Of a DNA stretch of 64,000 nt, positions 8,588-25,625 are shown one piece after another. This DNA comes from an uncultured Verrucomicrobiota bacterium (GTDB taxonomy: Bacteria; Verrucomicrobiota; Verrucomicrobiia; Limisphaerales; UBA8199). Location of the stretch: assembly GCA_964446585.1 (NCBI GenBank), contig CAYUPI010000004.1:124177-188176 (forward strand), in the 5' to 3' direction. Position 1 is the stretch's first letter; every line of letters starts with the position of its first letter. Both the position numbers and the translations under genes were made by a program. The notes under the pieces were generated by a model that saw only the letters and a list, made by a program, of their open reading frames with translations, did no database searches and had not been told where the DNA came from.

Positions 8588-8998
8588 TCATCGGGTCAGG
8601 CCGGTCGAAGGCTTCCAATCTTTATCTTTGATTTCGATCAGATAGCAGCCTGCATTATTTCCCATCAAATTCTCGGCATTGTGCTGTTCGGGCGGTGCCC
8701 AGCCCATTTCGCCGGCTTTAGCGTTCTCGAACGTTTCTTTCCCGTCCGGCGTGATGATCCGGAGCTTGGCATCGGTCAGCATGATATAAAGATGCGCCGG
8801 ATGCGTGTGCATACCAAATCCGCAAACGTCCTTCTCCGAACCCGTGTGGCACTCAATCACTCGAATCTTATCATTTTCGAAGGCGACCTTGTAAACTGCA
8901 GGTCCGTTCGAATTTGCTGCACTGCGCGGGGTATGACATCCTGCACAAACCAGGGCTAGAGCAGTGGCCGCGGCCATGACGGATGAGGCTTGACGCAT
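8588..8998 (-). CDS. Cupin-domain lipoprotein, BauB-like
   Basis: Start at ATG 8998; signal peptide with LVCAGC lipobox; cupin His motifs HTHP and EQHN; overall pattern ENDKIRVIE...LIEIK. Confidence 0.7.
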   Translation of the reverse strand: MRQASSVMAAATALALVCAGCHTPRSAANSNGPAVYKVAFENDKIRVIECHTGSEKDVCGFGMHTHPAHLYIMLTDAKLRIITPDGKETFENAKAGEMGWAPPEQHNAENLMGNNAGCYLIEIKDKDWKPSTGLTR

Positions 8999-9116
8999 GA
9001 AGCATGAATTCCGAAAAGCCAATGCCGAAAAATCTGACCAACGGCGTCCCTCTGGGTGTTGGAGTTTTGGCTTCGTTATTCCTTCGTCATTGGTCATTCG
9101 GATTTCGTCATTCATA
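8998..9116. repeat. Gene-less degenerate heptamer array with inverted arms (AATGACG type)
   Basis: Minus strand reads gaatgac-gaaatcc-gaatgac-caatgac-gaaggaa-taacgaa... and ends in a complementary-type arm (ttttcggcattggcttttcggaattc). It fills the gap between the preA stop and the cupin start. Confidence 0.7.
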
Positions 9117-10427: not shown

Positions 10428-10430
10428 AAA

Positions 10431-10588
10431 AAACTTTCAAATTCCAACATCCACCAACTAGATAAGCCTCAAGTCGCAAGGCACACAAAACCTCCAAAAT
10501 CCAACAACCAACTTCCAGAAAAAGCTCAAATCACAAGATCCAAAACAGATGGTTCTCGTTTGGCTGTTGGAAGTTGGAGGTTGGAGCT
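10431..10588. repeat. Heptamer array plus inverted arm downstream of four-helix-bundle gene 1
   Basis: CCAA-type units from 10431 to about 10545 (ttcaaat-tccaaca...ctccaaa-atccaac-aaccaac-ttccaga), then TTGG-type units at about 10559-10588 (tttggct-gttggaa-gttggag-gttggag). Confidence 0.75.
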
Positions 10589-11086
10589 TCATTTTTGTTT
10601 GGGTCGTTTGCGGAATATGCTGGCGAAAATCATGAGCAACTCGTGGCCTTCGCGATACAGCTTACAGGCTTCTTCGACCAAAGGGGCCTCGGAGGCGGCA
10701 ATCGTCCGCAGAAAATATTTCGTCTCCTTGGCCTCTTTAACGCAGCGACTGATCGAGAAAAAGAAATTCCCTTTCGAAAAGCTTTCGTTTGCTTCGAGAT
10801 AGTTGGCGCCGACGCTCGTGCCGCATCCAACGTTCTGATCTATCAGCCTGTTGTTCGTCGAGTCGTGAAGAATCCTCTTCGAGAAGCGCACAATCGCCTC
10901 GCCGAAATCTGGAGTCCGTTCTTCCAAATCGAACTCATGCCGCGGTTGGCCGGTTCCGTTAGGCCCCTCGTTCAACAACCAGCCCAATGCAAGCGGCTCC
11001 GGATAAGGGACTTGCTCACCAGCCTTTTTTGAAGCTTGAAGCTTGGTTTTTGTCTGGCTGTTGGCTGTTGGGTGTTGAAGTTTCAT
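10589..11086 (-). CDS. Four-helix-bundle protein (TIGR02436 / 23S rRNA IVS protein-like)
   Basis: DLEERT..FGEAIVRF, LIDQ..GCGTSVGANYLEA and KEAKETKYFL motifs. The ATG overlaps the preT stop (ATGA, 11083-11086). Confidence 0.85.
   Translation of the reverse strand: MKLQHPTANSQTKTKLQASKKAGEQVPYPEPLALGWLLNEGPNGTGQPRHEFDLEERTPDFGEAIVRFSKRILHDSTNNRLIDQNVGCGTSVGANYLEANESFSKGNFFFSISRCVKEAKETKYFLRTIAASEAPLVEEACKLYREGHELLMIFASIFRKRPKQK
11030..11082. repeat. Heptamer array at the 5' end of four-helix-bundle gene 1
   Basis: Minus strand acttcaa-cacccaa-cagccaa-cagccag-acaaaaa-ccaagct-tcaagct-tcaaaaa. Confidence 0.75.
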
Positions 11087-12543
11087 TTCACTTGCCGCGC
11101 GTATTGTTCCTCCAACTCCCCCACCCTTATCGGCCCATCGAACCCGGACCCAATTGGTGGCCCGCCTTTCACACCGTATCGCGACGGCTGGATCGGGCCG
11201 GAAATTTTTTGCCCGACGAAAAAAGCGTGAATGCCGCGCGCGGCTTTTTTGCCCTCGGCGACGGCATTGACGACTTCGCGGCCGCCATTGGCGCAGTCGC
11301 CGCCCGTGAAGACATGGGGAAGGGAAGTCTGCCCCGAGTCAGCTCGGTGAACCACCACTCCCTGTTTGTCCAGCTCCAGGTCAGAAAAGAGCTTCTTCAA
11401 CAGGCCAACCTGCTTCTGCTCGCCGATGGCTTTAATGACCATGTCGAACGGCTCGACCCAGTCGGTGCCCGGCAGAACCTGCAGCTTTCCGTTTGTGCTG
11501 GCCGTTCGAGCGAGCTTGAGCCCGGTCACGTGGCCGGTGTCGTTCGAGAGAATTTCCACTGGAACTGCATGGAAGATGAATTCGCAACCATCCGCCTTGG
11601 CCATCTCTTGCTCGAATTCGTAAGCCGGCATTTCTTCCCGGGTCCGCCGATAGATGAGCACCGCCTTCTCCGCCCCCAGCCGCTTGGCCTGGGTAACGGC
11701 GTCAATCGCCGTGTTGCCGCCGCCGATTACCGCGACTCTGTTGCCAACTGGCACCTGGTGCAGCGGCTGCGCGTGAATCTGTTCGATGAAATAAAGGGCC
11801 TCGACTACCTCGGGCAAATCTTCGCCCGCGATATTCATCCGCGCGCCGCCGCCGAGTCCGAAGCCGATAAAGATCGCATCAAACTTCTTCTCGAGTTCCG
11901 CGATGGTTATGTCGCGGCCCACCTCGACGCCACAGCGAATTTCCACGCCCAAATCCTGGACCATCCGGACTTCAAGGAGGCTCGTCTCCGGCTTCATTTT
12001 GTAGTAAGCAATGCCGTAGGTGTTCAGCCCGCCAGCCTGAGGTTTCTTTTCGAAGACCACGGCCTGATGGCCGAGCTGCGCCAGCTCGGCGGCGCAGCCC
12101 AGGCCCGCCGGACCGCCACCCAGGATCGCCACGCGCTTGCCGGACTTCCGTGCGGGCGGGTTGAACAGCTGCACTCCGTTATCATAAACGTGGTCCGTCG
12201 CGTGCCTCTGCAGCCTGCCGATTTTGACCGGGTCGCCCTCGCGATCCAGCATCACGCAAGCCCCCTCGCATAGCACCTCCGTCGGGCATACGCGCGCGCA
12301 ACTGGCACCAAGAATGTTTGCGCTGAGAATCGTGCGCGCCGCTCCGGTCAAATTCCCCGTCGTGATTTTCTTAATGAAAGAAGGGATGTCGATGCCGGTC
12401 GGACAAGCATGAATGCAGGGAGCATCGAAGCAAAACAGGCAGCGGTTGGCTTCGATGATGGCTTCATGGGGAGCATAGCGCGGAGCAATCTCGGCCATGT
12501 TGGCCGCGGCAGCTTCCGCGCCTAACTGGGGATTGATCGGCAT
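11083..12543 (-). CDS. preT: Dihydropyrimidine dehydrogenase subunit PreT (GltD-like FAD/Fe-S oxidoreductase)
   Basis: RCLFCFDAPCIHACPTGIDIP, CARVCPTEVLCEGAC, GGGPAGL, VIGGGNTAIDA; upstream of preA in the same orientation; ATG at 12543 chosen. Confidence 0.9.
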   Translation of the reverse strand: MPINPQLGAEAAAANMAEIAPRYAPHEAIIEANRCLFCFDAPCIHACPTGIDIPSFIKKITTGNLTGAARTILSANILGASCARVCPTEVLCEGACVMLDREGDPVKIGRLQRHATDHVYDNGVQLFNPPARKSGKRVAILGGGPAGLGCAAELAQLGHQAVVFEKKPQAGGLNTYGIAYYKMKPETSLLEVRMVQDLGVEIRCGVEVGRDITIAELEKKFDAIFIGFGLGGGARMNIAGEDLPEVVEALYFIEQIHAQPLHQVPVGNRVAVIGGGNTAIDAVTQAKRLGAEKAVLIYRRTREEMPAYEFEQEMAKADGCEFIFHAVPVEILSNDTGHVTGLKLARTASTNGKLQVLPGTDWVEPFDMVIKAIGEQKQVGLLKKLFSDLELDKQGVVVHRADSGQTSLPHVFTGGDCANGGREVVNAVAEGKKAARGIHAFFVGQKISGPIQPSRYGVKGGPPIGSGFDGPIRVGELEEQYARQVK

Positions 12544-12632
12544 AAAATGGCTGACAAGCAGATCAGAATAGGGGAATTCTAAGTGAAATAAAAGAAGCAA
12601 TAATAGGATTTTAGGACAACTCAGGACCAGGA

Positions 12633-13877
12633 ATGACGACACCCCTAAATCCGAAACGGACAGTCGCTGAACTCAAGGAACTGCGCAGCCTCACTTCCGA
12701 TGAGAACGGAGCGCAGCGGGTCGCCTTTACGCCGACGTGGGTCAAAGCGCGCGATTGGCTGAGAGAGAAACTCAGGTCACTGCCCGTTGAGAGCCACATC
12801 GATGCCGCGGGCAACTCCTGGACGACGCTCGCCGGTGAATCCGAGCGGGCGCTACTGATCGGCGGGCATATCGATTCGGTGCCGAACGGCGGCTGGCTCG
12901 ATGGCTGCCTCAATCTACTCGCCGGGCTGGAGATCCTGAGGCGAGTCAACGCGGAGTACGGAGGGAAGCCGCCGGTCACCGTCCGGCTGGTCGATTGGGC
13001 GGACGAGGAAGGCGCGCGGTTCGGCAAGAGTTTATTTGGCTCCTCGGCCTGTTCCGGAAACCTGAACATGGACGAGGCCCGTGTTCTAACGGACAAGCAA
13101 GGCATCCGCTTGCCGGACGCGCTCAAGAGTGTCGGCGTGGACTTCGAGCGAGTGAAGGAGAGCGGCCGGGAGCTCAAGAATGCGGGTGCCTATATCGAGT
13201 TGCACATCGAGCAAGGGCCGGTGCTGCTGGATTTGGAGCTGCCGCTGGGCGCGGTGCTGGGCACGTTCGGCGTCGAGCGGCACGCCATCACCTTTCATGG
13301 CCAGGCGGCGCATTCAGGCAGCACGCCGATGAACCGTCGCAAGGACGCCTTCCTGGCCGCGGCGAAGATAAGCCAGGAGATTTACCGCATTGCCGAACGG
13401 AGCAAGGGAGGAGTTTGCACTATCGGCTCCTGCACGACCAAACCCGGCATTGTGACGAGCGTCGTCGAAGAGTGCCGCATCACGCTCGATCAGCGTCACC
13501 TGGACGCGGCGGCCCTGGCGCGGATGCTGCAGGAGGCCAAGGCTGCAAGCGAACGCTTCGCGAAGGAAGGCAACGTCGGAGTGTCGTGGGAGCGGTTGTG
13601 GCAAATCGAGCCGGTGTTGTTTAATCCGGATTTGATAGCTTTCTGTTCGGAGGCGATAACTGAAACGTGCGGCAAAACTCACCGGCTCCCTTCGGGCCCG
13701 CTGCATGATGCCGCCGAGGTGGCGCGCGCCGGCATCCCGACGGTGATGACGTTCGTCCAAAGTCTCCACGGGATCAGTCACAACAAGATTGAAGATACCA
13801 AAGAAGAGCACCTCGAGCTCTGCGTGGCCGCATTCGATAAACTAGCGGACAAGGCGATGAAGTGGGTGGAAGGTTGA
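12633..13877 (+). CDS. M20 Zn amidohydrolase, probable beta-ureidopropionase / N-carbamoyl-amino acid hydrolase
   Basis: GGHIDSVPNGGWLDG, DEEGARFG, ELHIEQGP, HSGSTPM, SGPLHDA; divergent from preTA. Confidence 0.85.
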   Translation: MTTPLNPKRTVAELKELRSLTSDENGAQRVAFTPTWVKARDWLREKLRSLPVESHIDAAGNSWTTLAGESERALLIGGHIDSVPNGGWLDGCLNLLAGLEILRRVNAEYGGKPPVTVRLVDWADEEGARFGKSLFGSSACSGNLNMDEARVLTDKQGIRLPDALKSVGVDFERVKESGRELKNAGAYIELHIEQGPVLLDLELPLGAVLGTFGVERHAITFHGQAAHSGSTPMNRRKDAFLAAAKISQEIYRIAERSKGGVCTIGSCTTKPGIVTSVVEECRITLDQRHLDAAALARMLQEAKAASERFAKEGNVGVSWERLWQIEPVLFNPDLIAFCSEAITETCGKTHRLPSGPLHDAAEVARAGIPTVMTFVQSLHGISHNKIEDTKEEHLELCVAAFDKLADKAMKWVEG

Positions 13878-14001
13878 AGCGTTAGAACGCTGAAACGTTG
13901 AATCGTCAAGCGTGGAATGGTGGAATGGTGGAAGAGTGGGAGCGTGGAAGCGTCAAAGCGTTGAAGAGTTAAAGAGCTGAAGCGTAGAAACGTGGAATCT
14001 A
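13875..14001 (+). repeat. Degenerate 8-nt tandem array, about 16 units
   Basis: TGAAGCGT TAGAACGC TGAAACGT TGAATCGT CAAGCGT GGAATGGT GGAATGGT GGAAGAGT GGGAGCGT GGAAGCGT CAAAGCGT TGAAGAGT TAAAGAGC TGAAGCGT AGAAACGT GGAATCTA. Confidence 0.9.
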
Positions 14002-14005
14002 AGTC

Positions 14006-14530
14006 GTGGAATTGAAGCGCGTCCATTCCCTCGATGAACTGAATTCCCTATCGCAAGAGGAGTTTGTGCGCGGCGTTGGTCCTGTCTTTGAGAGTTCGCC
14101 GTGGGTTGCGGAGGGAACCTGGCCGAGGAGACCGTTCAAAGATTTGGCCGAGCTGCATCTCGCGCTTTGCGAGACGGTCCGCGGCGCGGCTGAAGAAAAG
14201 CAGCTCGCTCTGATTCGTGCGCATCCGGATTTGGTCGGCCGCGCGGCCCTGGCTGGCACGCTGAGGCCCGAATCCACTCGTGAACAGGCCAGCGCCGGGT
14301 TGAACCGGCTCCAGCCTGGCGAAATCGCCGCGTTCCAGGAATTAAACCAGGCGTATCGAGCAAAGTTCAGGTTTCCGTTCGTGATCTGCGCCCGGCTCAA
14401 CAGGAAGGAAGCGATATTGAATGGCCTTCGAGCGCGCTTGCAGCATTCAAGCGTAGAGGAGATCAAGACGGCGCTTGCTGAGATTGAAAAAATCGCTTAT
14501 CTGCGGCTGCAAGACATCGTCCGAACCTGA
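14006..14530 (+). CDS. uraD: OHCU decarboxylase
   Basis: [51 protein letters not shown]. Confidence 0.92.
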
Positions 14531-14535
14531 CGGCT

Positions 14536-14892
14536 ATGCCCGCCAAACTGAGCACACACGTCCTGGATACGGCACATGGTTGCCCGGCGGCTGGCATGCA
14601 GATCGAGTTGTGGTCGCTCGCTGGCGGGACGCCGAGGCTGTTGAAAACAGCGCGCACGAACAGTAATGGCCGGACCGATCAAGCGCTGTTGGCCGCCGAT
14701 GAAATCAAAGCCGGGTCGTACGAACTCATATTCTTCGTGGGCGACTACTTTGCAAGCAAGAGTGCTTCAGTGCCGAGCACGCGTTTCCTGGATCGGGTCC
14801 CCGTCCGCTTCGGTATCGCCGATCCAACTGCTTCCTATCATGTGCCGCTGCTGGTGTCGCCCTGGGCCTACAGCACGTATCGCGGGAGTTGA
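14536..14892 (+). CDS. uraH: 5-hydroxyisourate hydrolase
   Basis: [38 protein letters not shown] (transthyretin-like signature). Confidence 0.95.
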
Positions 14893-14908
14893 GCACATTC
14901 GTCCACGG

Positions 14909-16390
14909 ATGAGCGCCGCAAAGCCAGCCTCGGAATGGGGAAAGATGGCCACTCGGGTTATGCGGCGCCTTGAAGAGCTTGGCCAAATCAGCGACGAACC
15001 GGGCCGGCTGACGCGCACCTTTTGCTCGCCTGCGATGCGCCGCGCGAATGACCATGTCGGTTCCTGGATGCGCCAAGCAGGCATGACGATCCGTCAGGAT
15101 GCCATCGGCAATCTGGTCGGCCATTACCCCGGTCAAAGTGCGAAGTGCGAAGTGCGAAGTGCGAAATGCGAAGTCCATCCTCCTCCGTCAGAAGCACTGC
15201 GGAGGACAATAAGTCCATCCTTCTCTGTCAAGAGCGCTGCGGGGGACAAGAAGTCCAAAGTTCTGCTGCTTGGCTCGCATCTCGATACGGTCCGGGATGC
15301 GGGCAAATTCGACGGCGCTCTGGGCGTGCTGGTAGCCATTGCCTGTGTCCAGAAGCTCCACGAGCGTGGCAGCCGGCTGCCATTTGACATTGACGTCCTC
15401 GGTTTTGGAGATGAGGAAGGCATCCGGTATTCCACAGCCTGCCTGGGTAGCAGGGTCCTCGCGGGAACTTTCGACCGACGCGATTTGAAACGCCGAGACG
15501 CCAACGGCGTCACCATGAGGGAGGCCATCCGCGAATTCGGCGGACGCCCGCAAGCATTGAGCGGCGCGCGGTTCGATCCCGAACGGTTGCTCGGGTACGC
15601 CGAGATCCACATCGAACAGGGACCTGTGCTGGAGCAGCAGAATCTCGCGGTCGGCGTCGTGTCCGCCATAGGCGGTCAAACCCGCGCTCGGATTTCGTTC
15701 ACTGGGCAGGCCGGACATGCCGGGACCACTCCGATGAACCTGCGCCGGGATGCGTTGTGCGGTGCCGCCGAGTTTATTTCGGTAGTCGAGGCGCTCGCTC
15801 GGAAACAGCGCGGGCTGGTGGCTACTGTCGGCGAGCTCAAAGTGCTCCGCGGCGCTTCCAATGTGATTCCCGGCCAGGTCCAGCTCAGCCTGGACGTGCG
15901 GCATGCGGAAGACGCCAGGCGGCGGGCCGCGTGCGCCGAATTGAAAAAGCGTGGCCGGGCCATCGCTTCTGAAAGAAAATTGCGATTTGAATGGAAACCG
16001 GTCAGTGAGTCACCTGCCATTCGGTGTGATCGATGGCTCTCTCAACTAATGAAGGAAGCCGTGCAGCGGCAGCAGGGCTCGGCCGTGAGTTTGCCCAGCG
16101 GGGCAGGGCATGACGCGGCGGCCATTGCGGCTATCGCCCCCGTAACTATGCTCTTCGTCCGGTGCAAGAACGGTCTCAGCCATCATCCGGCGGAATACGC
16201 CTCGAAAAGGGACGTGGGCATCGCTATGGCCGTCCTGGTTGATTTTTTGCGGGGGCTGGCAAAGAGATTTGGAACGTCCTGCGAGTCACCGACAGTGCGT
16301 AGCCGTGGACGTCAGTCGGCGCTGAAAAGCACGCGGGAAGAAGGTCCGCCGACTCACGTCGGCGGCTACAATTCAGCCCGCGATTTGTGA
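14909..16390 (+). CDS. allC: Allantoate amidohydrolase with repeat-derived internal insertion and C-terminal extension
   Basis: DAIGNLVG, GSHLDTVRDAGKFDG, DEEGIRY, EIHIEQGP, HAGTTPM, SGAGHDA, SHHPAE; lies between uraH and allB. Confidence 0.88.
   Translation: MSAAKPASEWGKMATRVMRRLEELGQISDEPGRLTRTFCSPAMRRANDHVGSWMRQAGMTIRQDAIGNLVGHYPGQSAKCEVRSAKCEVHPPPSEALRRTISPSFSVKSAAGDKKSKVLLLGSHLDTVRDAGKFDGALGVLVAIACVQKLHERGSRLPFDIDVLGFGDEEGIRYSTACLGSRVLAGTFDRRDLKRRDANGVTMREAIREFGGRPQALSGARFDPERLLGYAEIHIEQGPVLEQQNLAVGVVSAIGGQTRARISFTGQAGHAGTTPMNLRRDALCGAAEFISVVEALARKQRGLVATVGELKVLRGASNVIPGQVQLSLDVRHAEDARRRAACAELKKRGRAIASERKLRFEWKPVSESPAIRCDRWLSQLMKEAVQRQQGSAVSLPSGAGHDAAAIAAIAPVTMLFVRCKNGLSHHPAEYASKRDVGIAMAVLVDFLRGLAKRFGTSCESPTVRSRGRQSALKSTREEGPPTHVGGYNSARDL
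15136..15256 (+). repeat. AAGTGCG heptamer array followed by an imperfect 40-bp tandem duplication inside allC
   Basis: AAGTGCG x4 plus AAATGCG at 15136-15170; units 15171-15210 and 15211-15250 match at 33/40 positions by manual alignment. Confidence 0.9.
16299..16369. repeat. GTAG-type REP inverted pair inside the allC 3' end
   Basis: gtagccgtggacgtcagtcggcg (16299-16321) vs reverse complement of 16347-16369, gtagccgccgacgtgagtcggcg: 20/23 identity. Confidence 0.85.
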
Positions 16391-17763
16391 GCGATTCCAA
16401 TTTTGATCTCCTCATCCGGCGTGCCTCTGTCGTTACCGAGAGCGCCATCAACCGCATGGACATCGGCATCGCTTGGGGCCGCATCGCGGCGCTAGGGCCC
16501 GAGCTCAGCGGCTCTGCCCGCGAGACCATCGACGCCTCCGGGTTGCACGCCTTTCCCGGGTTGATTGATTCCCACGTCCATTTCAACGAGCCGGGCCGCG
16601 CGCATTGGGAAGGGTTCGACTCCGGCTCCCGCGCTCTCGCCGCCGGCGGCGGCACGCTCTTTTTCGACATGCCGCTCAATTCGACGCCGCCCACGATCGA
16701 CGCCGCCAGTTTCGATCGGAAACTCGCCGCCGCGCAGGCTAATTCGCTGGTGGATTTTGCGTTTTGGGGTGGACTCGTGCCGGGCAATGTCCAGCACATG
16801 GAAGCGCTCAGCGAGCGCGGTGTGGTCGGCTTTAAGGCGTTTATGGCCGACAGCGGCATCGAGGATTTCCCCCGGGCGGATGAAGTAACGTTGCGCGCTG
16901 GGATGAGGCAGGCCGCCCGATTGGGAAAAATTGTCGCCGTCCACGCGGAAAGCGAAGAGATGATTCGCTCGAAGACCGACCAGCTTCTGTCAGCCGGGTC
17001 CTCGTCCGCTCGCGATTACCTCGACTCTCGGCCCATCCCCGCCGAGCTCGATGCCATAGGCCGAGCGCTGGACATGGCTGGGGAGAGCGGCTGCGCATTG
17101 CACATCGTGCATGTCAGTTGCGGCGCGGGTGTTGCGCTTGTCGCTTCCGCTCGAAAGCAAGGAGTGAACGTTACCTGCGAAACTTGCCCACACTACCTCA
17201 CGCTGACTGAAGAGGACGTGTTTCGGTTGGGTGCAGTTGCGAAAAGCGCCCCGCCACTGCGTGCCAAACCAGCCCAGGATTCTTTGTGGGAGTACCTCAG
17301 GTCGGACCAGATCACCACGGTGGGCTCCGATCACTCGCCGTCGCCTCCCGAGCTGAAGACCGGCACGAATTTTTTCAGAGTCTGGGGCGGCATTTCCGGC
17401 ATTCAGCACACGCTGCCGCTTCTTCTTACCGAAGGCCACGTCCAGCGCAACGTCGTTCTGCCAATTATCGCGCGGCTCACCTCTTTCAATGTCGCTGAGC
17501 GATTTGCGCTGCCGGCTGCGAAAGGTCGAATTGGCCTGCAGGCCGAGGCGGATTTCGCGCTAGTGGATCTGGGGCTGTCTTCCGAAGTCCGGGCCGGCGA
17601 TTTGCTGTGCCGACACCCGCAAACGCCTTACATTGGACGCACGTTGACAGGCAAAGTTGTCCGGACCATTCTCCGCGGGCAAACGGTTTGTCTGGACGGG
17701 AAAATTGTCTCGCAACCGATGGGCCGTTTGGTCAGACGGGAAGGCTCGACGAGCCCAAAATGA
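16387..17763 (+). CDS. allB: Allantoinase
   Basis: PGLIDSHVHFNEPGR.HWEGF, GGGTLFFDMPLNS.PPT, VHAE, HIVHVS, CETCPHYL, PPLR, GSDHSP, WGGISG. Confidence 0.93.
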   Translation: MSDSNFDLLIRRASVVTESAINRMDIGIAWGRIAALGPELSGSARETIDASGLHAFPGLIDSHVHFNEPGRAHWEGFDSGSRALAAGGGTLFFDMPLNSTPPTIDAASFDRKLAAAQANSLVDFAFWGGLVPGNVQHMEALSERGVVGFKAFMADSGIEDFPRADEVTLRAGMRQAARLGKIVAVHAESEEMIRSKTDQLLSAGSSSARDYLDSRPIPAELDAIGRALDMAGESGCALHIVHVSCGAGVALVASARKQGVNVTCETCPHYLTLTEEDVFRLGAVAKSAPPLRAKPAQDSLWEYLRSDQITTVGSDHSPSPPELKTGTNFFRVWGGISGIQHTLPLLLTEGHVQRNVVLPIIARLTSFNVAERFALPAAKGRIGLQAEADFALVDLGLSSEVRAGDLLCRHPQTPYIGRTLTGKVVRTILRGQTVCLDGKIVSQPMGRLVRREGSTSPK

Positions 17764-17842
17764 CGGCGAGCCGTGGAGCTATTGATTTTTGCGGCGCGCG
17801 ACGTGTTGACCTTAGAATGCAGCAGATTTGAACCGCTTAGTT

Positions 17843-18586
17843 ATGACTAACCTCTTTGGCAGCACCCGTAGCGCAATTAAAGAGCGCTATGGCTTGATTG
17901 CTCCCAGCGGCTTTGTGCCCAGCGTTCTGCCCGGCTGGCAAAAGGCTGTGTGCCACGTAGTCATCTCTCCTGCCCTGGGCGCGCGGTTCTGCCAAATTCA
18001 CGTTACGCTGGAACAGGACGGCCAGTGTCAGGGCAACACCGGCGCGAATGAGTATTTCATCTATGTCCTCGAAGGCGCGGCCAGCATTCTGGTCGAAGAA
18101 CGCCGGCGCCGGCTCGAGACTGGCAACTACGTTTACCTGCCGGCCGCCACCGACGTGCAATTGAAAAGCAACGGGTCCGCCACTCGCATTTTGATTTTTC
18201 AAAAGCCTTATCAACCGTTGCCCGGCGTGGCCAAACCGACCGCCCTGGTCGGCCAGGAGCGCGACATCAAAGGCCAGCCCTTCCTCGGCAATGAAGACGC
18301 CCGGTTGCAAGTGCTGTTGCCCGAGGAGCCCGCCTTCGACATGGCCGTCAATATTTTTACTTATCAGCCAGGAGCGACACTGCCGTTCGTGGAAACCCAC
18401 ATCATGGAGCATGGCCTTCTGATGCTGCGAGGGCAGGGCATCTACCGGTTGAATGCCGATTGGCATCCGGTGCAAGCCGGCGATGTGATCTGGATGGCGC
18501 CGTATTGCCCGCAATGGTTCGTGGCGATGGGCAAAACACCGGCCAGTTACATCTACTACAAAGACGTGAACCGGGATCCGATTTGA
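17843..18586 (+). CDS. allE: (S)-ureidoglycine aminohydrolase (bicupin)
   Basis: FDMAVNIFTYQPGATLPFVETHIMEHGLLML.GQGIYRL, GDVIWMAPYCPQWF, YIYYKDVNRDP. Confidence 0.92.
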   Translation: MTNLFGSTRSAIKERYGLIAPSGFVPSVLPGWQKAVCHVVISPALGARFCQIHVTLEQDGQCQGNTGANEYFIYVLEGAASILVEERRRRLETGNYVYLPAATDVQLKSNGSATRILIFQKPYQPLPGVAKPTALVGQERDIKGQPFLGNEDARLQVLLPEEPAFDMAVNIFTYQPGATLPFVETHIMEHGLLMLRGQGIYRLNADWHPVQAGDVIWMAPYCPQWFVAMGKTPASYIYYKDVNRDPI

Positions 18587-18593
18587 ATATCTG

Positions 18594-18635
18594 AAGCCCG
18601 AGGTCCGAAGTGCGAAATGCGAAGTCCGAAATCCG
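18594..18635 (+). repeat. Heptamer array, AAGTGCG family
   Basis: AAGCCCG AGGTCCG AAGTGCG AAATGCG AAGTCCG AAATCCG just after the allE stop. Confidence 0.85.
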
Positions 18636-18734
18636 GAGACGGATGCTTTAGTGACGGTCTGCCGTTCGCGCGCCCGGGCTTTTTCGATCGTTGCTTTCTC
18701 CCCGCGCACCGCTACCATCCGCGCTTCGAGTGTT

Positions 18735-19382
18735 ATGACGCCAGCGCGTGCCCCGAAAAACGAGAAGAAACGGCTCAAAGTGCTGTGGGAATACTCCGTG
18801 CTCGACACCGTGCCGGAGGAAATCTTCGACGACTTGACTGAACTGGCGGCGCGCATCTGCGAGGCGCCGATCGCTATGATTACGCTCGTGGACGAAAAAC
18901 GTCAGTGGTTCAAATCCAAGGTCGGCGTCAGCGTCAGCGAGACGTCGCGGGACATTTCCTTTTGTTCCCATGCCATTACGCAGCCCGGGTTGTTTATCGT
19001 GCCGGATGCAACCAAGGACGAGCGATTTGCGGATAACCCCCTCGTGACTTCCGATCCGAAGGTGCGCTTTTACGCGGGCGCGCCGCTCATTACGGCCGAC
19101 GGTTATGCCCTGGGAACACTCTGTGTCATTGACAAAGTCCCGCGCGAATTGCACCCCGACCAGAAACAGGCCTTATGCATCCTCGCCCGCCACGTCGTCA
19201 TCCAACTGGAACTCCGCAGACGTTCCGCAGAGCTGGCCAGTGCCCGGAACGAACTCGGGAGAATGAAGACCGCCCTGGCTCAGGTGCGAAAGGAGCTGGC
19301 CAAAGTCCGCCGCGGGCTGCGTCGGTCCCGAGCGACCCACAACTCGCGTCCCGCCCGCCCCAAGGCCAAAGGCCGCAGGTAA
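18735..19382 (+). CDS. Stand-alone GAF-domain protein with basic coiled-coil tail
   Basis: RL..L.EYSVLDT.PEE.FDDLT.LAARIC..PIAMITLVDE.RQWFKS, SFCSHAI, VRFYAGAPL, LGTLCVID; no output domain follows. Confidence 0.85.
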   Translation: MTPARAPKNEKKRLKVLWEYSVLDTVPEEIFDDLTELAARICEAPIAMITLVDEKRQWFKSKVGVSVSETSRDISFCSHAITQPGLFIVPDATKDERFADNPLVTSDPKVRFYAGAPLITADGYALGTLCVIDKVPRELHPDQKQALCILARHVVIQLELRRRSAELASARNELGRMKTALAQVRKELAKVRRGLRRSRATHNSRPARPKAKGRR

Positions 19383-19428
19383 TTTCTCTGGCGCGTTCGC
19401 CGCGCCGACTGACGGCCCCGTTCCTTTC

Positions 19429-20676
19429 ATGGCGCTTTCGCTGACCATTGACAGCCCTCGCCTCGAGAAACAACTCGGAGCCCTTGCCGCCATTTCCGAA
19501 GCGCCGCCTCCGGTGGTTACGCGCGTGCTGTTTTCCGATGCCGATCGCCGCGGGCGGTCGTTCGTGAAGGATCTTTGCCGTGAAGCCAGCCTACAAGTGA
19601 GCGAAGACGCGGTTGGTAACCTCTTCGCCCGCTGGTCAGGAAAAGAGTCGCAACTGACGCCGATTGCCACCGGATCCCACATTGACGCCGTCCCAAACGC
19701 GGGGCGTTTCGATGGCGTGGTCGGCGTGCTTGGCGCATTGGAAGCCGTGCGCTCGCTAAAGAGCGCGGGTTTCGAACCGCGCCGGAGCATTGAAATCATC
19801 ATGTTCACGGCGGAAGAGCCGACCCGCTTCGGCATGGGTTGCCTGGGCAGCCGCCTGCTGTCGGGAGCGCTGAGCCCGGAGAAGGCCGCCGCCTTGCGCG
19901 ATCCCGAAGGCAAGACCCTCGACCTGTGGCGCACTGAGGCCGGGTATGGGAAACGGCCATTGACCTCTGTCCGGTTGGCGCGGAACTGCTACGCCGGTTT
20001 CATCGAGCTGCACATCGAGCAAGGACCGCTGCTTGAACGAGAGCGCGTGGCAATCGGAGTTGTCAGGATCATCGCAGCCCCTAGTACCCTGCGCGTGCGA
20101 CTTGTCGGAACAGGGGGCCACGCCGGTGCCGTGCTGATGCCGGACAGGCATGACGCCTTGCTCGCGGGTGCGGAGATCGCGCTCGCCGTCGAGCAAGCCG
20201 CATTGTGCAGCGGCAGTCCAGATACAGTCGCCACTACGGGAGCTTTCCGCATCGAGCCGGGTGCCGTCAACAGCGTGCCGTCGGGCGCCTGGTTGGAAAT
20301 AGATCTGCGCGACGTGCAACTAAGCACGAGGGACGCAGCCCTCCGTCAGATTGAGACGGCTGTCCGCGACATCTGCCAACGCCGAGGCGTCGAATTTCAA
20401 CTCGAACGCCTGAACGCGGACGCGCCGGCCACCTGTGATCCAGAACTCATCAAGACCGTCCTCTCGGTGTGCGATGAGCTCGACTTGTCCGCCCGGGAAA
20501 TGATCAGTCGCGCTTACCACGATACGCTGTTCATGGCCAGGTTATGTCCTACAACCATGATCTTCATCCCGTGCCGTGGGGGCGTCAGCCATAGGCCGGA
20601 CGAATATTCCTCGCCGGACCAGATCCGTGACGGAGTACTGGTCCTCGCGCAAAGTTTAGCGCGACTAGGCGTCTGA
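19429..20676 (+). CDS. M20 amidohydrolase, probable ureidoglycolate amidohydrolase (plant UAH-like)
   Basis: ATGSHIDAVP, EEPTRFG..CLGSRLL, SRAYHDTLFMAR, MIFIPC.GG.SH.P.EYSSP resemble plant UAH motifs as recalled; located in the ureide cluster. Confidence 0.75.
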   Translation: MALSLTIDSPRLEKQLGALAAISEAPPPVVTRVLFSDADRRGRSFVKDLCREASLQVSEDAVGNLFARWSGKESQLTPIATGSHIDAVPNAGRFDGVVGVLGALEAVRSLKSAGFEPRRSIEIIMFTAEEPTRFGMGCLGSRLLSGALSPEKAAALRDPEGKTLDLWRTEAGYGKRPLTSVRLARNCYAGFIELHIEQGPLLERERVAIGVVRIIAAPSTLRVRLVGTGGHAGAVLMPDRHDALLAGAEIALAVEQAALCSGSPDTVATTGAFRIEPGAVNSVPSGAWLEIDLRDVQLSTRDAALRQIETAVRDICQRRGVEFQLERLNADAPATCDPELIKTVLSVCDELDLSAREMISRAYHDTLFMARLCPTTMIFIPCRGGVSHRPDEYSSPDQIRDGVLVLAQSLARLGV

Positions 20677-20694
20677 ACCAGGCCCGCCTTTTTA

Positions 20695-20723
20695 TTGCAG
20701 GCGCGGGATTTTTTGGCTATGCT
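20695..20723 (+). promoter_or_regulatory. Putative sigma70 promoter for xdh
   Basis: TTGCAG (20695-20700), 17 nt, TATGCT (20718-20723), upstream of ATG 20738. Confidence 0.45.
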
Positions 20724-20737
20724 TGGCTGGAAGCACT

Positions 20738-23700
20738 ATGGACGGGGCCCTTGAGTTTATTCTGAACAGCCGTCGGGTTCGGCTCGCGGATTGTTCGCCC
20801 AATGCCACTCTGCTGGATTATCTCAGGGGCTGCGGTTTTACCGGTTCCAAAGAAGGCTGCGCCGAGGGCGATTGCGGAGCGTGTTCCGTGGCAATCGTGG
20901 ACCGGGATTCCCGGGGACGCGCCTGCTACCGCGCCATCAACAGTTGCCTGGTGCCGATTTCACTCCTGGCGGGGCGCGAGATTATCTCGGTCGAAGGAGT
21001 AGCCTTTCGCAACAAAACCCAAAACCCAAAACCCAAAATCCAATCGCGCCACGCGGTGTCTCCCACCGAGGCAATCGACGAGGTCCAGCTCCACCCGGTC
21101 CAGGAAACAATGGTTCGCTGCCACGGCTCGCAATGCGGCTATTGCACGCCCGGGTTCATCCTGTCGCTGTTCGAGGGCTATTACCGCGGCGACATTTCCA
21201 AATCGGATCAACTGGACGATCAGCTTTGCGGCAATCTTTGCCGGTGCACCGGCTACCGACCGATTCGTGAAGCGGCTCTCGAGGCCTTCCCGGCACGACA
21301 TCGCAAAAATGGCCGAGACCCATTCGCGGAGCGGCTGGAACGGCCGGTCCCGTCTCTGGATGAAGTCGAGTACGCGCTCGACGGTGAAATGTTTTTCCGG
21401 CCATCGTCGCTCCCGCAGCTCCTGCAGTTGATGGAGCGATTTCCTGACAGCAGGCTGATCGCCGGTGCGACGGAACTTGGACTGGACATTACGAAGCGAT
21501 TCAAGAAGTTCCCAACCCTCATCTCAGTTGAGGCGGTGCCCGACTTGAAAGAAATCCACTCGACGGATTCTGAATGGCGCATCGGCGCTGCTGCTACGCT
21601 CACCGAAATCGAGGAACAGATGGCGGAGGAATTTCCAGCTCTCGCCGACATGTTGCGCGTCTTTGGCTCGCGCCAAATCCGCAATCGCGCCACCATGGGC
21701 GGCAACCTTGTCACGGCTTCGCCCATCGGCGACAGCGCGCCGGTGTTGCTGGCGCTGGACGCCAAAGTCGTTCTGGTCTCTGCTCAACCTGCACTTGCGA
21801 CGCCCCCCTCGCAGCTTCCCTCGCTGATCGAGCGCATACTGCAGCTCGACGACTTTTTTGTGACTTATCGCAAAACCGCGCTGCGGCCGGGTGAAATCCT
21901 CAAAACAATTTTGGTGCCGCGTTCCGACAGCGAATCCGGCCTTCGTCGATTCTGCCGGTGGTATAAAGTTTCGAAGCGACGGGAAATGGACATCAGTACC
22001 GCGGCGGCCTGTTTTTGCGTCGATATCGACCACCAGCGCATCGTCAGGGACGCCCGACTCGCTTATGGTGGCGTGGCTCCGATGCCTGTGCGCGCCCACA
22101 AGACTGAGGCAGCTCTGCTCGGGATGCCGTGGAGCAAAGAGACACTCTCTCGAGTTGTACCCATCTTGCAGAGTGAGTTCACCCCGATTTCCGACGTGCG
22201 CGGCTCGGCCGAGTACCGACGAGGGCTGGGTGCGAGCCTTTTTGAGAAGTTCTATCAAGAGACCTCTGAGGAGCCGAACGATCGCCGGGACCAAGGTCTG
22301 CCGCTGCTCGTTAGGTCTCCGGCCGAAGGACGGAAGCGCGCGTTGCCGCATGAGAGCGCGCACAAGCATGTCACGGGCGAGGCGATTTACACCGATGACC
22401 AAGCCTGCGGCACACGCATGCTCGACGTCTGGCCTGTCTGTTCGCCGCACGCGCGCGCGCGGGTCCTCCGGCGGGATGCGACGGTCGCATGCAAGATGCC
22501 CGGCATAAAAGCGGTGCTCCTGGCTGAAGACGTACCGGGCCTGAACGATGCGGGCACAAAACTCGATGAAGCGTTGCTGGCCACTGATAATGTGTTTTAT
22601 CACGGTCAGATTGTCGCGCTGGTCGTTGGTGAATCTCAGGAAGTTTGCCGTGCCACGGCTGATAAAGTTCTTGTCGATTACGAGCCCCTTGAGCCGATTC
22701 TGACTCTGACGGAGGCGATCGCCCAAGGGAGCTTTCACAATGAACCGAATTTTATCCGCCGCGGCGACATTGAGGCGGCGCTTGCCGCTGCGCCCTTGAT
22801 TCTGCGCGGCGAATTCGAGTTAGGCGGCCAGGAACACTTTTACCTCGAAACTCATGCGGCGTGGGCCGAACCGGGCGAGGATGGCACGATGTTCGTGACC
22901 TCATCGACCCAGCATCCTTCCGAAGTCCAGACGGTGGTGGCGCACGCCCTCCGTCAGCCCGTAAACAATATCATTGTGCAATGTCCTCGTATGGGCGGTG
23001 GCTTCGGCGGCAAGGAAACCCAGGCGGCAATGCCCGCGGCCCTGGCTGCGCTAGCCGCGCATCATACTGGCCGAGCCGTGCGCGTTCGATTCAATCGCGA
23101 TCAGGACATGATCCTCACCGGCCATCGGCATCCCTTCCGGGCGGAATTCGCGGTCGGCTTCGACACCCAGGGCCGGCTGCTGGCGGCGCGAGTGCACCTG
23201 ACCTCAAACGGCGGTTGGGCATTGGATCTATCACAAGCCGTCACTGACCGCGCGCTCTTTCATCTGGATAATGCCTATTACATTCCCGCGGTCGAGTTTC
23301 GCGGCCAGGTGGCGAAGACCAATCTTTCGTCGAACACCGCTTTTCGGGGGTTCGGTGGCCCGCAGGGCATGCTCGTCATCGAGGAAATCATCGATCGCAT
23401 CGCACGTCGGCTCGGCCTTCCACCGGAAACGGTCCGCGAACGAAATCTCTATCGTGGCAAGGGCGAGACGAACACAACTCATTACGGACTGGAGATCGCG
23501 GACAACCGCATTCAAACCATCTGGCGCGAGTTGAAGATGTCCAGCGGCCTGACACGGCGCCGCGCCGAGATTGCAGCCTGGAACCGGAAGCATCCTCATC
23601 GGAAGCGCGGTCTGGCGATGACTCCCGTCAAGTTCGGTATCAGCTTCACGGTGACGCATCTCAATCAGGCAGGCGCGTTCGTTTTGATTTACCAGGATGG

Positions 23701-24682
23701 CACAGTGCAGGTGAATCATGGAGCCACCGAAATGGGGCAGGGCGTACATACGAACATCACGGCGATCGCCGCTCGTGAATTGGGCGTTGGACTCGATCAG
23801 GTCCGCGTGATGCCGACCAGCACGGACAAAGTCCCGAACACTTCTGCCACCGCGGCCTCTTGCGGCACGGATCTCAATGGCGCGGCGGTCAGAAACGCCT
23901 GTGAGATCCTTCGCGGCCGACTGGCTCCAATCGCCGCCGACGTGCTCAAACTGAAAATCGGACGCCGGCCCGTGCCCGAGCAATTGACTTTTGCTGAAGG
24001 CCACGTTTACTGGCGCCGGCGCCCGCGCATTTCGGTCAGCTTTGCTGACGTCGCCCGCGCGGCGGTCCAGCGACGCATCAGCCTCTCCGCCGCGGGATAC
24101 TACGCCACGCCAGGAATCCGATACGACCGCGCCGCCGGCCGCGGCCACCCCTTCTATTATTTTGCCTGTGGCGCTGCGGTTTCCGAAGTCGAAGTGGACG
24201 GCTTCACCGGGATGCACCGCGTCTTGCGGGTGGACATCCTCCACGATGTCGGCGACTCGATCAACGAGGGTGTCAATCGCGGCCAAATCGAAGGCGGCTT
24301 CGTCCAGGGGATGGGCTGGTTGACGATGGAAGAACTGAAATGGGACCACCAGGGCCATCTACTTACCCATTCTCCCGACACCTACAAGATTCCCGCGGTC
24401 GGCGACATGCCGCAGGTCTTCAATGTCTCGCTTCTCAAGAACGCCGCGCAAAAGGGCACGATCTACGGGAGCAAAGCCGTCGGGGAGCCGCCGTTGATGC
24501 TGGCAATCTCTGTCCGCGAGGCTATTCGCGATGCCGTCGCAGCGTTTGGGCCTCCAAAAACCCAGGTGCCCTTGCCTTCACCCGCCACCTGTGAGGCGAT
24601 TTACCTCACGATTCAGGCATTTCAGAGCCGAAAGAAGCCGTCGATTCTTGCGCCGGCCCCGCAGCTCCTTGCCGCAGGTTGA
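20738..24682 (+). CDS. xdhAB: Xanthine dehydrogenase, single-chain XdhA-XdhB fusion
   Basis: KEGCAEGDCGAC and SQCGYCTPG/GNLCRCTGY (2Fe-2S); IAGATELGL and IRNRATMGGN (FAD); GQEHFYLE, MGGGFGGKE, AFRGFGGPQG, TAASCG, SKAVGEPPL (Moco), all in one frame. Confidence 0.93.
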   Translation: MDGALEFILNSRRVRLADCSPNATLLDYLRGCGFTGSKEGCAEGDCGACSVAIVDRDSRGRACYRAINSCLVPISLLAGREIISVEGVAFRNKTQNPKPKIQSRHAVSPTEAIDEVQLHPVQETMVRCHGSQCGYCTPGFILSLFEGYYRGDISKSDQLDDQLCGNLCRCTGYRPIREAALEAFPARHRKNGRDPFAERLERPVPSLDEVEYALDGEMFFRPSSLPQLLQLMERFPDSRLIAGATELGLDITKRFKKFPTLISVEAVPDLKEIHSTDSEWRIGAAATLTEIEEQMAEEFPALADMLRVFGSRQIRNRATMGGNLVTASPIGDSAPVLLALDAKVVLVSAQPALATPPSQLPSLIERILQLDDFFVTYRKTALRPGEILKTILVPRSDSESGLRRFCRWYKVSKRREMDISTAAACFCVDIDHQRIVRDARLAYGGVAPMPVRAHKTEAALLGMPWSKETLSRVVPILQSEFTPISDVRGSAEYRRGLGASLFEKFYQETSEEPNDRRDQGLPLLVRSPAEGRKRALPHESAHKHVTGEAIYTDDQACGTRMLDVWPVCSPHARARVLRRDATVACKMPGIKAVLLAEDVPGLNDAGTKLDEALLATDNVFYHGQIVALVVGESQEVCRATADKVLVDYEPLEPILTLTEAIAQGSFHNEPNFIRRGDIEAALAAAPLILRGEFELGGQEHFYLETHAAWAEPGEDGTMFVTSSTQHPSEVQTVVAHALRQPVNNIIVQCPRMGGGFGGKETQAAMPAALAALAAHHTGRAVRVRFNRDQDMILTGHRHPFRAEFAVGFDTQGRLLAARVHLTSNGGWALDLSQAVTDRALFHLDNAYYIPAVEFRGQVAKTNLSSNTAFRGFGGPQGMLVIEEIIDRIARRLGLPPETVRERNLYRGKGETNTTHYGLEIADNRIQTIWRELKMSSGLTRRRAEIAAWNRKHPHRKRGLAMTPVKFGISFTVTHLNQAGAFVLIYQDGTVQVNHGATEMGQGVHTNITAIAARELGVGLDQVRVMPTSTDKVPNTSATAASCGTDLNGAAVRNACEILRGRLAPIAADVLKLKIGRRPVPEQLTFAEGHVYWRRRPRISVSFADVARAAVQRRISLSAAGYYATPGIRYDRAAGRGHPFYYFACGAAVSEVEVDGFTGMHRVLRVDILHDVGDSINEGVNRGQIEGGFVQGMGWLTMEELKWDHQGHLLTHSPDTYKIPAVGDMPQVFNVSLLKNAAQKGTIYGSKAVGEPPLMLAISVREAIRDAVAAFGPPKTQVPLPSPATCEAIYLTIQAFQSRKKPSILAPAPQLLAAG
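21014..21041 (+). repeat. AAAACCC x3 plus AAAATCC heptamer array inside xdh
   Basis: Direct reading; translated within NKTQNPKPKIQ between the two 2Fe-2S subdomains. Confidence 0.85.
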
Positions 24683-25625
24683 ATTCTTTTTCGTAAACAA
24701 GCTCCGCCCGTTTATCGATGAACTGGGCCATGATGCTTACCGCGATCTCCGGCACACTCCGCGACCGAATCTTGATTCCAACTGGACATACCACGCGACG
24801 CAGCTCGTCCTCGGTCGCAAGTTTTTCCTCGCGGAAATGCTCGAAGATGGTGCGTGCCTTGCGCGAGCTGCCAATCATGCCGAGGAAAACGAAGGGCTTG
24901 TGGATCCACTCTCTCAGCAGCAGTGCATCATGACGGTGACCGCGGGTGACTATCAGGCCGAGGCTCGGGGTGTCCGGCAGAGGCAGTGGCAACAGCTTTT
25001 CCCACACGTCCGCTCGCAGTGAAACTCCGTGCGGAAAATACTTATGGTTCGCCAGCGCGGGCCGGTCGTCAAAGACTGTGACCGCGAAATCCAGTTGCAG
25101 GGCCAGCGGCGCAACCGCCTGGGCGAGGTGGCCCGCGCCGCCGATCCAGAGCGCGCACGGCGGGGTGACGGTTTCCTGATAAAGCCACGCCTCGCGAGGC
25201 GGGTTGTCTGGCAGAGCCATGATGAAATAGTCCCTGGTCACGCCCCAGGAGAGCTTCCTCGGCCGTTTGACCAGTTCCGTCCAAAAACTTTCGCCGATGT
25301 TTTGTGCGTTAGGGACAATCACTCCGAAAACCTTGCCGCCGCAAATCAGGCCGTCGTCCCAGCCGAAATCGTGATCGAGCAACAGGTCGAAAGACTCCGC
25401 CTTTCCTTTTCGCATTGATTGGAGGGCGCGCTGCTGAATTTCAGCTTCCAGACAACCGCCGCCTACCGTTCCCGTGATGCGGCCGTCCGCATGAAACAAG
25501 GCCTTGGCGCCGACCTTTTGCGGGCTGGAACCCTTTACGCCCGAGATGATTCCCAAGGCGACCGGTTCGCCCCGCCGAGCGGCGTCCGCCAACTCCTGGA
25601 ATACCGCATTGTTCATTGTCTCCAC
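24606..25625 (-). CDS. xdhC: XdhC/CoxI family Moco-insertion accessory protein
   Basis: GSSPQKVGAK, GTVGGGCLEA, ICGG, IGGAGHLA, VFDDRP, VTRGHRHD, FLGMIGSSRK, CPVG. Confidence 0.9.
   Translation of the reverse strand: METMNNAVFQELADAARRGEPVALGIISGVKGSSPQKVGAKALFHADGRITGTVGGGCLEAEIQQRALQSMRKGKAESFDLLLDHDFGWDDGLICGGKVFGVIVPNAQNIGESFWTELVKRPRKLSWGVTRDYFIMALPDNPPREAWLYQETVTPPCALWIGGAGHLAQAVAPLALQLDFAVTVFDDRPALANHKYFPHGVSLRADVWEKLLPLPLPDTPSLGLIVTRGHRHDALLLREWIHKPFVFLGMIGSSRKARTIFEHFREEKLATEDELRRVVCPVGIKIRSRSVPEIAVSIMAQFIDKRAELVYEKEFNLRQGAAGPAQESTASFGSEMPES

Follow-up and report, generated by a model that had tools for sequence, protein, structure and literature searches.

Which enzyme oxidizes urate in an organism that encodes, in a single gene cluster, the reactions on both sides of this step? 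The question is raised by a 64,000-nucleotide stretch of DNA from an uncultured Verrucomicrobiota bacterium (genome G000), hereafter the window, which corresponds to positions 124177-188176 of contig C4 in a draft assembly of 6.4 Mb and 150 contigs (96.84% complete, 0.71% contaminated). A purine-catabolism cluster at positions 14006-25625 of the window covers the route from xanthine to glyoxylate except for the conversion of urate to 5-hydroxyisourate. Our analysis indicates that this gap is likely filled by P0001, a DUF989 protein encoded outside the cluster on another contig, C36, which would have replaced the soluble, cofactor-less uricase in this lineage. Judged by its membrane domain, P0001 is a member of the PuuD family of urate oxidases and represents an uncharacterised, cytochrome-less variant that departs from published PuuD in two of the features by which the latter is defined.

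The purine-catabolism cluster

Genes in the window were called from a list of open reading frames (ORFs), followed by Pfam and NCBIfam profile scans with curated cut-offs. The cluster contains the following genes:

14006-14530, plus strand: UraD, OHCU decarboxylase (OHCU, 2-oxo-4-hydroxy-4-carboxy-5-ureidoimidazoline; PF09349, E 2.2e-48; TIGR03164, 186.9 bits, cut-off 96.25)
14536-14892, plus strand: UraH, 5-hydroxyisourate hydrolase (PF00576, E 3.9e-35; TIGR02962, 127.5 bits, cut-off 87.45)
14945-16390, plus strand: allantoate amidohydrolase, AllC type (NF006775, 537.8 bits, cut-off 479)
16387-17763, plus strand: allantoinase AllB (TIGR03178, 533.3 bits, cut-off 357.85)
17828-18586, plus strand: (S)-ureidoglycine aminohydrolase, AllE type, bicupin (TIGR03214, 314.1 bits, cut-off 200)
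18732-19382, plus strand, in an ORF that opens at 18651: GAF-domain protein (PF01590, E 5.1e-17)
19429-20676, plus strand: M20 amidase resembling ureidoglycolate amidohydrolase (UAH), putative ureidoglycolate amidohydrolase (TIGR01879, 353.6 bits, cut-off 204)
20723-24682, plus strand: fused XdhA+XdhB xanthine dehydrogenase (XDH), 1319 aa (seven Pfam domains; TIGR02963, 479.9 bits, cut-off 467; TIGR02965, 977.1 bits, cut-off 849.5)
24606-25625, minus strand: XdhC-family molybdenum-cofactor insertion factor (PF02625, XdhC_CoxI; PF13478, XdhC_C)

An earlier note on this DNA had listed XDH, UraH, UraD, AllB, AllC, AllE and a UAH-like enzyme, and the Pfam and NCBIfam matches place all seven at these positions. 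Curated equivalog cut-offs are passed by all genes of the cluster but those for the UAH-like amidase, the GAF protein and XdhC, and the genes from UraD through the fused XDH form a co-directional block. A ureide route via allantoate amidohydrolase, ureidoglycine aminohydrolase and ureidoglycolate amidohydrolase is represented by AllB, AllC and AllE of E. coli and by plants. The G000 cluster resembles it in that its AllB, AllC-type and AllE-type proteins pass the equivalog cut-offs and a paralogous M20 amidase is encoded after them, and differs from it in the single-chain XDH (as in eukaryotes), in the inserted GAF gene and in abutting genes for PreT, PreA and a carbamoylase. Going by these family assignments, the cluster is probably a working ureide pathway from xanthine to glyoxylate.

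The step that is missing is indeed missing from the window, which encodes no urate oxidase. That it holds no uricase, HpxO or HpyO, as the earlier note had stated, is borne out by whole-genome profile searches: contig C4 has zero matches to PF01014, PF06181 or PF13454, and in the window PF01494 responds only to the dinucleotide-binding motif in a PreT-like gene. HpxDE, which the note had grouped with the urate oxidases, is a hypoxanthine/xanthine hydroxylase.

Urate oxidases in the rest of the genome

Classical uricase was not detected in G000. The uricase profile PF01014 gave zero matches at E <= 1 in the whole genome, and tblastn with the uricase of a relative found no true match there, with positive controls in the relatives recovered. 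The FAD-NAD(P)-binding domain PF13454, which we take to represent the HpyO (Xanthomonas type) family, had no match in G000 at E <= 0.01 and did match in control genomes. HpxO (Klebsiella type) is presumably a class A flavin monooxygenase of PF01494, in the salicylate-hydroxylase-like subgroup. Three real PF01494 proteins are encoded in G000, none close to purine genes. The best of these resembles phenol 2-monooxygenase/PnpA, with 0 urate hydroxylases among its 35 PDB matches at E <= 1e-10, and the remaining two are halogenase/geranylgeranyl-reductase-like. All three were rejected as HpxO candidates on their resemblance to other hydroxylase or halogenase/reductase types, without direct comparison to an HpxO reference.

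The fourth known type of urate oxidase, PuuD, had been missing from the list in the earlier note, and it is this type that has a counterpart in G000. The genome contains one match to PF06181 (Urate_ox_N, formerly DUF989), at C36:29510-30328(-) with E 4.9e-81 and 272.8 bits, encoding P0001. The suggestion that the gene lies elsewhere in the genome therefore stands, as a PuuD-family gene on C36; the types named at the time (uricase, HpxO and HpyO) were not found in the 96.8%-complete genome. A known urate oxidase elsewhere, which the note had regarded as contrary to its claim of a gap, is present in spirit and not cleanly, since P0001 is without the C-terminal cytochrome c.

The uricase slot is empty in G000

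The relation between DUF989 and uricase is seen in 41 genomes of the same family/order, comprising G000 and 40 relatives. DUF989 was found in 0/40 relatives, so that G000 is the sole carrier. UraD is present in five of the 40, four of which have a classical uricase: in G003, G011 and G015 it lies between the gene for an M20 carbamoylase (M20_1) and uraD, and in G038 it lies elsewhere. None of these four has DUF989. Synteny gives the family layout as UAH-like amidase, ureidoglycine aminohydrolase, AllB, allantoate amidohydrolase, UraH, UraD, uricase (divergent), carbamoylase, PreT and PreA. In G000, position 13877 is the last of the carbamoylase gene and 14006 the first of uraD, which leaves a gap of 128 bp in contiguous sequence. 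The former uricase site is filled by one feature:

13873-13997, no strand: octamer repeat array (Tandem Repeats Finder)

In this array an 8-bp unit, AAGCGTGG / GTTGAAAC, is repeated about 15 times in degenerate form, and a motif scan located such an array at a single place in the genome. The uricase slot of G000 is empty. A tblastn match with an E-value of 0.002 was considered as a possible uricase remnant in the slot and rejected, being antisense uraD aligned with a non-uricase N-terminal extension of the query ORF.

The same arrangement is found in the Verrucomicrobiota with the closest DUF989 proteins (G042, G045, G048 and G090), where the carbamoylase gene adjoins uraD and no uricase gene was found in the genome. 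The gap between the two genes is about 80-100 bp in G045 and G048, and in both of these DUF989 is unlinked to the cluster, lying 40 kb off on the same contig in G045. The lineage is thus in two exclusive states: either the slot holds uricase and DUF989 is absent, or the slot is empty and DUF989 lies elsewhere; the exception is G021 (86% complete), in which neither uricase nor DUF989 was found. The sequences in the carbamoylase-uraD gap differ among the other DUF989-type Verrucomicrobiota, that of G045 being a long inverted repeat, and G021 has, in the uricase slot (L033:10843-11883), an ORF of 346 aa with domains of the retropepsin-like aspartyl protease kind.

These observations bear on the possibility that a classical Uox, HpxO or HpyO is hidden in the unassembled ~3% of the genome. 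The assembly is a draft of 150 contigs, 96.84% complete, and four relatives do use uricase. However, the site at which the relatives carry uricase is assembled unbroken in G000, as 128 bp of octamer repeats, and about ten other Verrucomicrobiota with the same layout and DUF989 are also without uricase; loss of the gene to assembly gaps in all of them is unlikely. We regard a hidden classical oxidase as extremely improbable.

Features of P0001

PuuD was first identified by an association rule, according to which the gene is present where UraH/UraD are present and Uox, HpxO and HpyO are absent (PMC4562309). As first defined, it consists of a DUF989 membrane domain of eight helices and a cytochrome c, and the only PuuD tested by experiment, Atu2314 of A. 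fabrum, has the cytochrome c (PMC4562309). In 2015 two groups of DUF989 proteins were distinguished, one full-length with cytochrome and one short, of four helices, with unrelated gene context (PMC4562309).

P0001 is a protein of 272 aa that spans positions 5-259 of the 295 in the PF06181 profile. An alignment of 84 sequences was built from P0001, 79 relatives and four classical PuuD proteins annotated on replicons of Sinorhizobium, Leisingera, Ralstonia and Azospirillum. P0001 retains every column that is invariant across this set, classical PuuD included: R14, W15, H17, W24, G26, F31, W60, H63, G65, F67, W85, F86, E89 and G97, as well as Y139, G183, M190, N193, V194, I198, P200, N230, M241 and S243. 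Its DUF989 domain is 38-43% identical to those of the four PuuD proteins. Like PuuD, proteins of this kind are found where UraH/UraD occur without uricase, and G000 fits the association rule.

P0001 departs from PuuD at its C-terminal end. In our AlphaFold2 model (mean predicted local distance difference test score, pLDDT, 81.8) there are seven long helices, and the first cytoplasmic loop carries a conserved beta-hairpin; the alignment also gives seven helices, unlike the eight of PuuD. Directly behind helix VII, at the point from which classical PuuD continues into helix VIII, the chain comes to an end, and alignment and motif scan reveal no helix VIII, linker, CxxCH or distal Met region. The C-terminal cytochrome c with its CXXCH and distal Met is therefore absent, whereas in the ORFs extracted for the classical PuuD controls CxxCH falls at residues 340-405. 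Beyond the stop lies a convergent SMP-30 gene, which shows the stop to be real. Metagenomic homologues at 81-85% identity have the same length of 272 aa, and the ORF of P0001 is intact. Unlike PuuD, the gene lies away from purine genes in G000, although 47 of 80 homologous loci have a purine neighbourhood. On sequence grounds, this seven-helix, purine-linked, cytochrome-less clade fits neither published DUF989 group. Proteins of the P0001 type are already labelled 'urate hydroxylase PuuD' in public annotation, and our literature search found no paper describing a cytochrome-less full-length DUF989. The enzyme that occupies the slot in G003, G011 and G015, Uox/PucL (PF01014), serves the same pathway step; it is a soluble protein with two tandem T-fold domains, has no relation to the DUF989 protein and releases H2O2, and it was not found in G000.

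The neighbours of the P0001 gene encode SMP-30/gluconolactonase, Mrp/ApbC and an acyl-CoA synthetase. Contamination as the source of contig C36 was considered and rejected: its guanine-plus-cytosine (GC) content of 0.583 equals that of the genome, the Mrp neighbour is 76% identical to, and likewise placed as, its counterpart in a Verrucomicrobiota metagenome-assembled genome (MAG), and P0001 groups with Verrucomicrobiota on the tree. Upstream sequences of the DUF989 gene and of the cluster were compared by eye, and nothing stood out in this reading, which included no formal motif comparison.

Structural comparison of the P0001 model gave no match in the PDB at E <= 0.001 with Foldseek. With VIA-align, the best Z among 48,161 chains was 8.8, for designed or soluble four-helix bundles. 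The di-haem b cytochromes 5oc0, 1kqg_C, 5zlg and 4o6y reached Z ~7-7.7, which is in the noise range for helical proteins, and a haem b site was not adopted on this ground. A possible kinship of DUF989 with HemJ/CopD-like families was dropped as well, five family members having no such hmmscan match at E <= 10.

Cytochrome-less DUF989 in other phyla

Relatives of P0001 were sought in 185,579 species genomes, which gave 80 loci at 38-62% identity, and CxxCH is present in 0/80 of their DUF989 ORFs. In 47 of the 80, from other phyla, purine-catabolism genes are no more than 10 kb from DUF989; in the usual arrangement DUF989 comes directly downstream of uraH and has XDH, XdhC, AllB, allantoicase and UraD around it. 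These purine-linked loci come from Acidobacteriota, Bacteroidota, Ignavibacteriota, Fidelibacterota (Marinimicrobia), Myxococcota and Alphaproteobacteria (e.g. Tagaea). A maximum-likelihood tree rooted on classical PuuD places P0001 in a Verrucomicrobiota clade of 13 (Shimodaira-Hasegawa-like approximate likelihood ratio test, SH-aLRT, 99), nested among purine-linked clades.

Carriers of cytochrome-less DUF989 nearly always have UraH (49/50 genomes) and mostly no detected uricase (48/50). An even sample was taken from the class of G062 (Thermoanaerobaculia, Acidobacteriota), comprising 121 genomes, with strong DUF989 defined as E <= 3e-72. UraH is found in 38 of them: 29 have strong DUF989 without uricase and the other nine have uricase without strong DUF989, and neither was found in any genome without UraH. 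The pattern follows the association rule that first led to PuuD, here with proteins that are without cytochrome, with perhaps one exception, a 411-aa frame in G396. Genomes flagged as unpublished are included, namely G058 and G087 among the 50, and G294 (uricase) and G388 (a weak DUF989 paralogue) among the 121; without them the counts become 47/48, 46/48 and 29+8. A large cytochrome-less clade, tied to uraH and mutually exclusive with uricase, suggests from its distribution that the chemistry sits in the DUF989 core.

The loci also allow us to judge whether P0001 could be half of a split PuuD, in which the DUF989 oxidase works with a separately encoded periplasmic carrier such as a soluble cytochrome c or cupredoxin. 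Classical PuuD always comes with the cytochrome (PMC4562309), which favours this idea. On the other side, no ORF with CxxCH was found within ~6 kb of the G000 gene. Between 9000 and 30000 of the window there is one, at 8588-9157 (-), which belongs to no Pfam family and is located outside the cluster. The motif is absent from the 80 related ORFs, and in five purine-linked loci the genes beside DUF989 encode allantoicase, UraD, DUF6986 and UraH, plus a metallophosphoesterase in L044, and no electron carrier. Moreover, seven helices with the N terminus outside, as published for PuuD, would put the C terminus in the cytoplasm, away from a periplasmic carrier. A split PuuD is accordingly very unlikely in our view.

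Several further sequences were encountered in these genomes. Many Thermoanaerobaculia (G292-G403) have one or two extra DUF989 paralogues at E 1e-13 to 1e-47, which occur without UraH and cover profile positions 62-270 and a short N-terminal piece; they are DUF989 relatives with some other role. Five MAG records titled 'uncultured Bifidobacterium/Bifidobacteriaceae' (L036, L039, L042, L045 and L059) have DUF989 proteins that group tightly with those of Verrucomicrobiota, that of L039 being nearly identical to one from a Verrucomicrobia MAG, and from this grouping the titles look like mislabels. Purine clusters of four phyla contain, between uraD and uraH, a protein of ~450 aa with the domain DUF6986 (PF22484, E ~1e-182) and weak malate-synthase/HpcH TIM-barrel similarity. 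Searches found none in G000, and the four examples are:

L075:8191-9630: DUF6986 protein
L062:10756-12129: DUF6986 protein
L044:7020-8375: DUF6986 protein
L050:8227-9582: DUF6986 protein

Assignment of the urate-oxidizing step

Taken together, the empty slot, the conserved DUF989 core and the distribution in other phyla argue for P0001 as the urate oxidase of G000. Several points weigh against this assignment. The cytochrome c of PuuD was called invariant and probably essential, partly because S. meliloti ccmC mutants cannot use purines (PMC4562309). Two genomes, G085 and G089, carry both uricase and cytochrome-less DUF989, and in locus L094 of G089 the two are in one cluster. The genomes behind the co-occurrence counts are related and not independent of one another, so that the counts overstate independence. 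No purine gene adjoins the DUF989 gene in G000 or in its closest DUF989 relatives, and the AlphaFold model of P0001 has no informative structural match that would give a clue to a cofactor. Our confidence in the assignment is high and stops short of certainty because of the two carriers with uricase, because the only PuuD tested by experiment has the cytochrome and because the gene is unlinked. The locus L094 itself (9177-11692, from an Acidobacteriaceae MAG, one of the 2/50 genomes with both) has UraD, UraH, cytochrome-less DUF989 and classical uricase in a row.

Some of these points would also suit a truly unrecognised urate-oxidizing enzyme, in which case DUF989 would act in transport, conduct electrons or assist another oxidase. 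In G000 the cluster and the DUF989 gene are unlinked, L094 and G085 have uricase and DUF989 together, and the cluster includes a GAF protein of no assigned role. In addition, neither a cofactor nor activity in vitro has been demonstrated for the DUF989 domain (PMC4562309). However, in the 121-genome sample each UraH-positive genome has uricase or strong DUF989, never both and never neither, which leaves no room there for a third enzyme, and the GAF protein is missing in half of the DUF989-type clusters examined and has no redox motif. A transport role was argued against for PuuD on the ground that cytosolic Uox fully complements a puuD deletion, an argument that applies to the membrane domain of the family (PMC4562309). 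We consider an unrecognised enzyme very unlikely.

With P0001 as the urate oxidase, the pathway would run as follows. Xanthine would be converted to urate by the fused XDH with XdhC, and urate to 5-hydroxyisourate by the DUF989 protein encoded on C36. UraH and UraD would then lead through OHCU to allantoin, AllB to allantoate, the allantoate amidohydrolase to ureidoglycine, the ureidoglycine aminohydrolase to ureidoglycolate and the UAH-like amidase to glyoxylate. Urate might be oxidized at the cytoplasmic face of the DUF989 core, which the conserved helices I, II, V and VI make up together with loops I-II and V-VI. This side is chosen because a topology argument made for PuuD puts catalysis on the cytoplasmic side (PMC4562309), and it fits cytosolic UraH and UraD. 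Electrons would leave by a route other than a fused cytochrome, namely to the quinone pool, to a separately encoded carrier or directly to O2. G000 encodes two haem-copper oxidase catalytic subunits (COX1 family), and an aerobic respiratory sink therefore exists; no cytochrome bd was found in the genome.

It is possible to go further, and we lean slightly towards the view that cytochrome-less seven-helix DUF989 proteins are a widespread class of self-sufficient membrane urate oxidases, present in Verrucomicrobiota, Acidobacteriota, Bacteroidota, Ignavibacteriota, Fidelibacterota, Myxococcota and some Alphaproteobacteria. In that case, the DUF989 core by itself would contain the catalytic site and any cofactor, and the cytochrome c fused to classical PuuD would be an extra part for exporting electrons, not essential for catalysis; electrons would pass to quinone or directly to O2.

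Of the four urate oxidases, PuuD is to our knowledge the one least understood, and it is not known to have been purified. The cytochrome-less DUF989 is smaller and simpler, and may be easier to express and purify. New in the present analysis are a clean case of replacement, in which the uricase slot is empty and an unlinked DUF989 has been gained, and the 29/9 split of the UraH-positive genomes. P0001 would close the apparent pathway hole for the window, and the organism, as far as its predicted enzymes tell, probably takes xanthine all the way to glyoxylate, ammonia and CO2.

Other features of the cluster

The allantoate amidohydrolase gene probably starts at the ATG at 14945, which has GGGGAAAG upstream, the ORF itself opening at 14666. 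Compared with the orthologues of relatives, the protein (14945-16390) has an extra internal insert of ~35 aa and a C-terminal tail of ~40 aa; both are also extra to the NCBIfam model, which matches in two stretches. The UAH-like M20 amidase is under the cut-off of all allantoate-amidohydrolase models, the best being NF006771 with 381.9 bits against 399. Its position after the ureidoglycine aminohydrolase gene is kept in relatives at 67-69% identity, and from this gene context the amidase at 19429-20676 is a putative ureidoglycolate amidohydrolase. The fused XDH has its 2Fe-2S, FAD (flavin adenine dinucleotide) and molybdopterin domains on a single chain. XdhC, whose gene is convergent with that of XDH, scores 98.9 bits with TIGR02964, under the cut-off of 161.6, and passes only two Pfam models. 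A threonine synthase gene lies downstream of the cluster.

The GAF gene inside the cluster is absent from the list in the earlier note. Its product has a GAF domain, then a coiled-coil and, last, a very basic tail; it is encoded by a single copy in the genome and matched no NCBIfam family. The gene is kept at the same cluster position in G045 and G048 at 63-67% identity; it is not in the cluster of G042, and none was detected in the uricase-type clusters of relatives. The protein is probably a sensor or regulator, and it may be a small-molecule sensor for the ureide pathway. It was rejected as the missing oxidase: besides its patchy presence in the DUF989-type clusters, it has no redox domain, and its coiled-coil and basic tail are typical of regulators.

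Neighbouring pyrimidine genes

On its upstream side, the cluster is bordered by the following genes:

9117-10427, minus strand: PreA (NF006183, 646 bits)
10589-11086, minus strand: four-helix-bundle protein of the 23S rRNA intervening-sequence protein family (TIGR02436), between PreA and PreT
11083-12642, minus strand: PreT-like flavoprotein, which pairs with PreA
12633-13877, plus strand: M20 carbamoylase, M20_1 (Pfam Peptidase_M20; TIGR01879, 296.6 bits)

The PreT-like protein was considered as a uric-acid enzyme and rejected, the AegA/YgfT 'formate-dependent uric acid utilization' models being far under their cut-offs and the protein pairing with PreA as in dihydropyrimidine dehydrogenase. 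The M20_1 carbamoylase is 82-85% identical to orthologues in relatives, where it adjoins PreT/PreA, and is probably part of the adjacent PreT/PreA pyrimidine pathway. PreA, the PreT-like protein and the carbamoylase make up a module for reductive pyrimidine catabolism that directly abuts the purine cluster, and this junction is kept in relatives.

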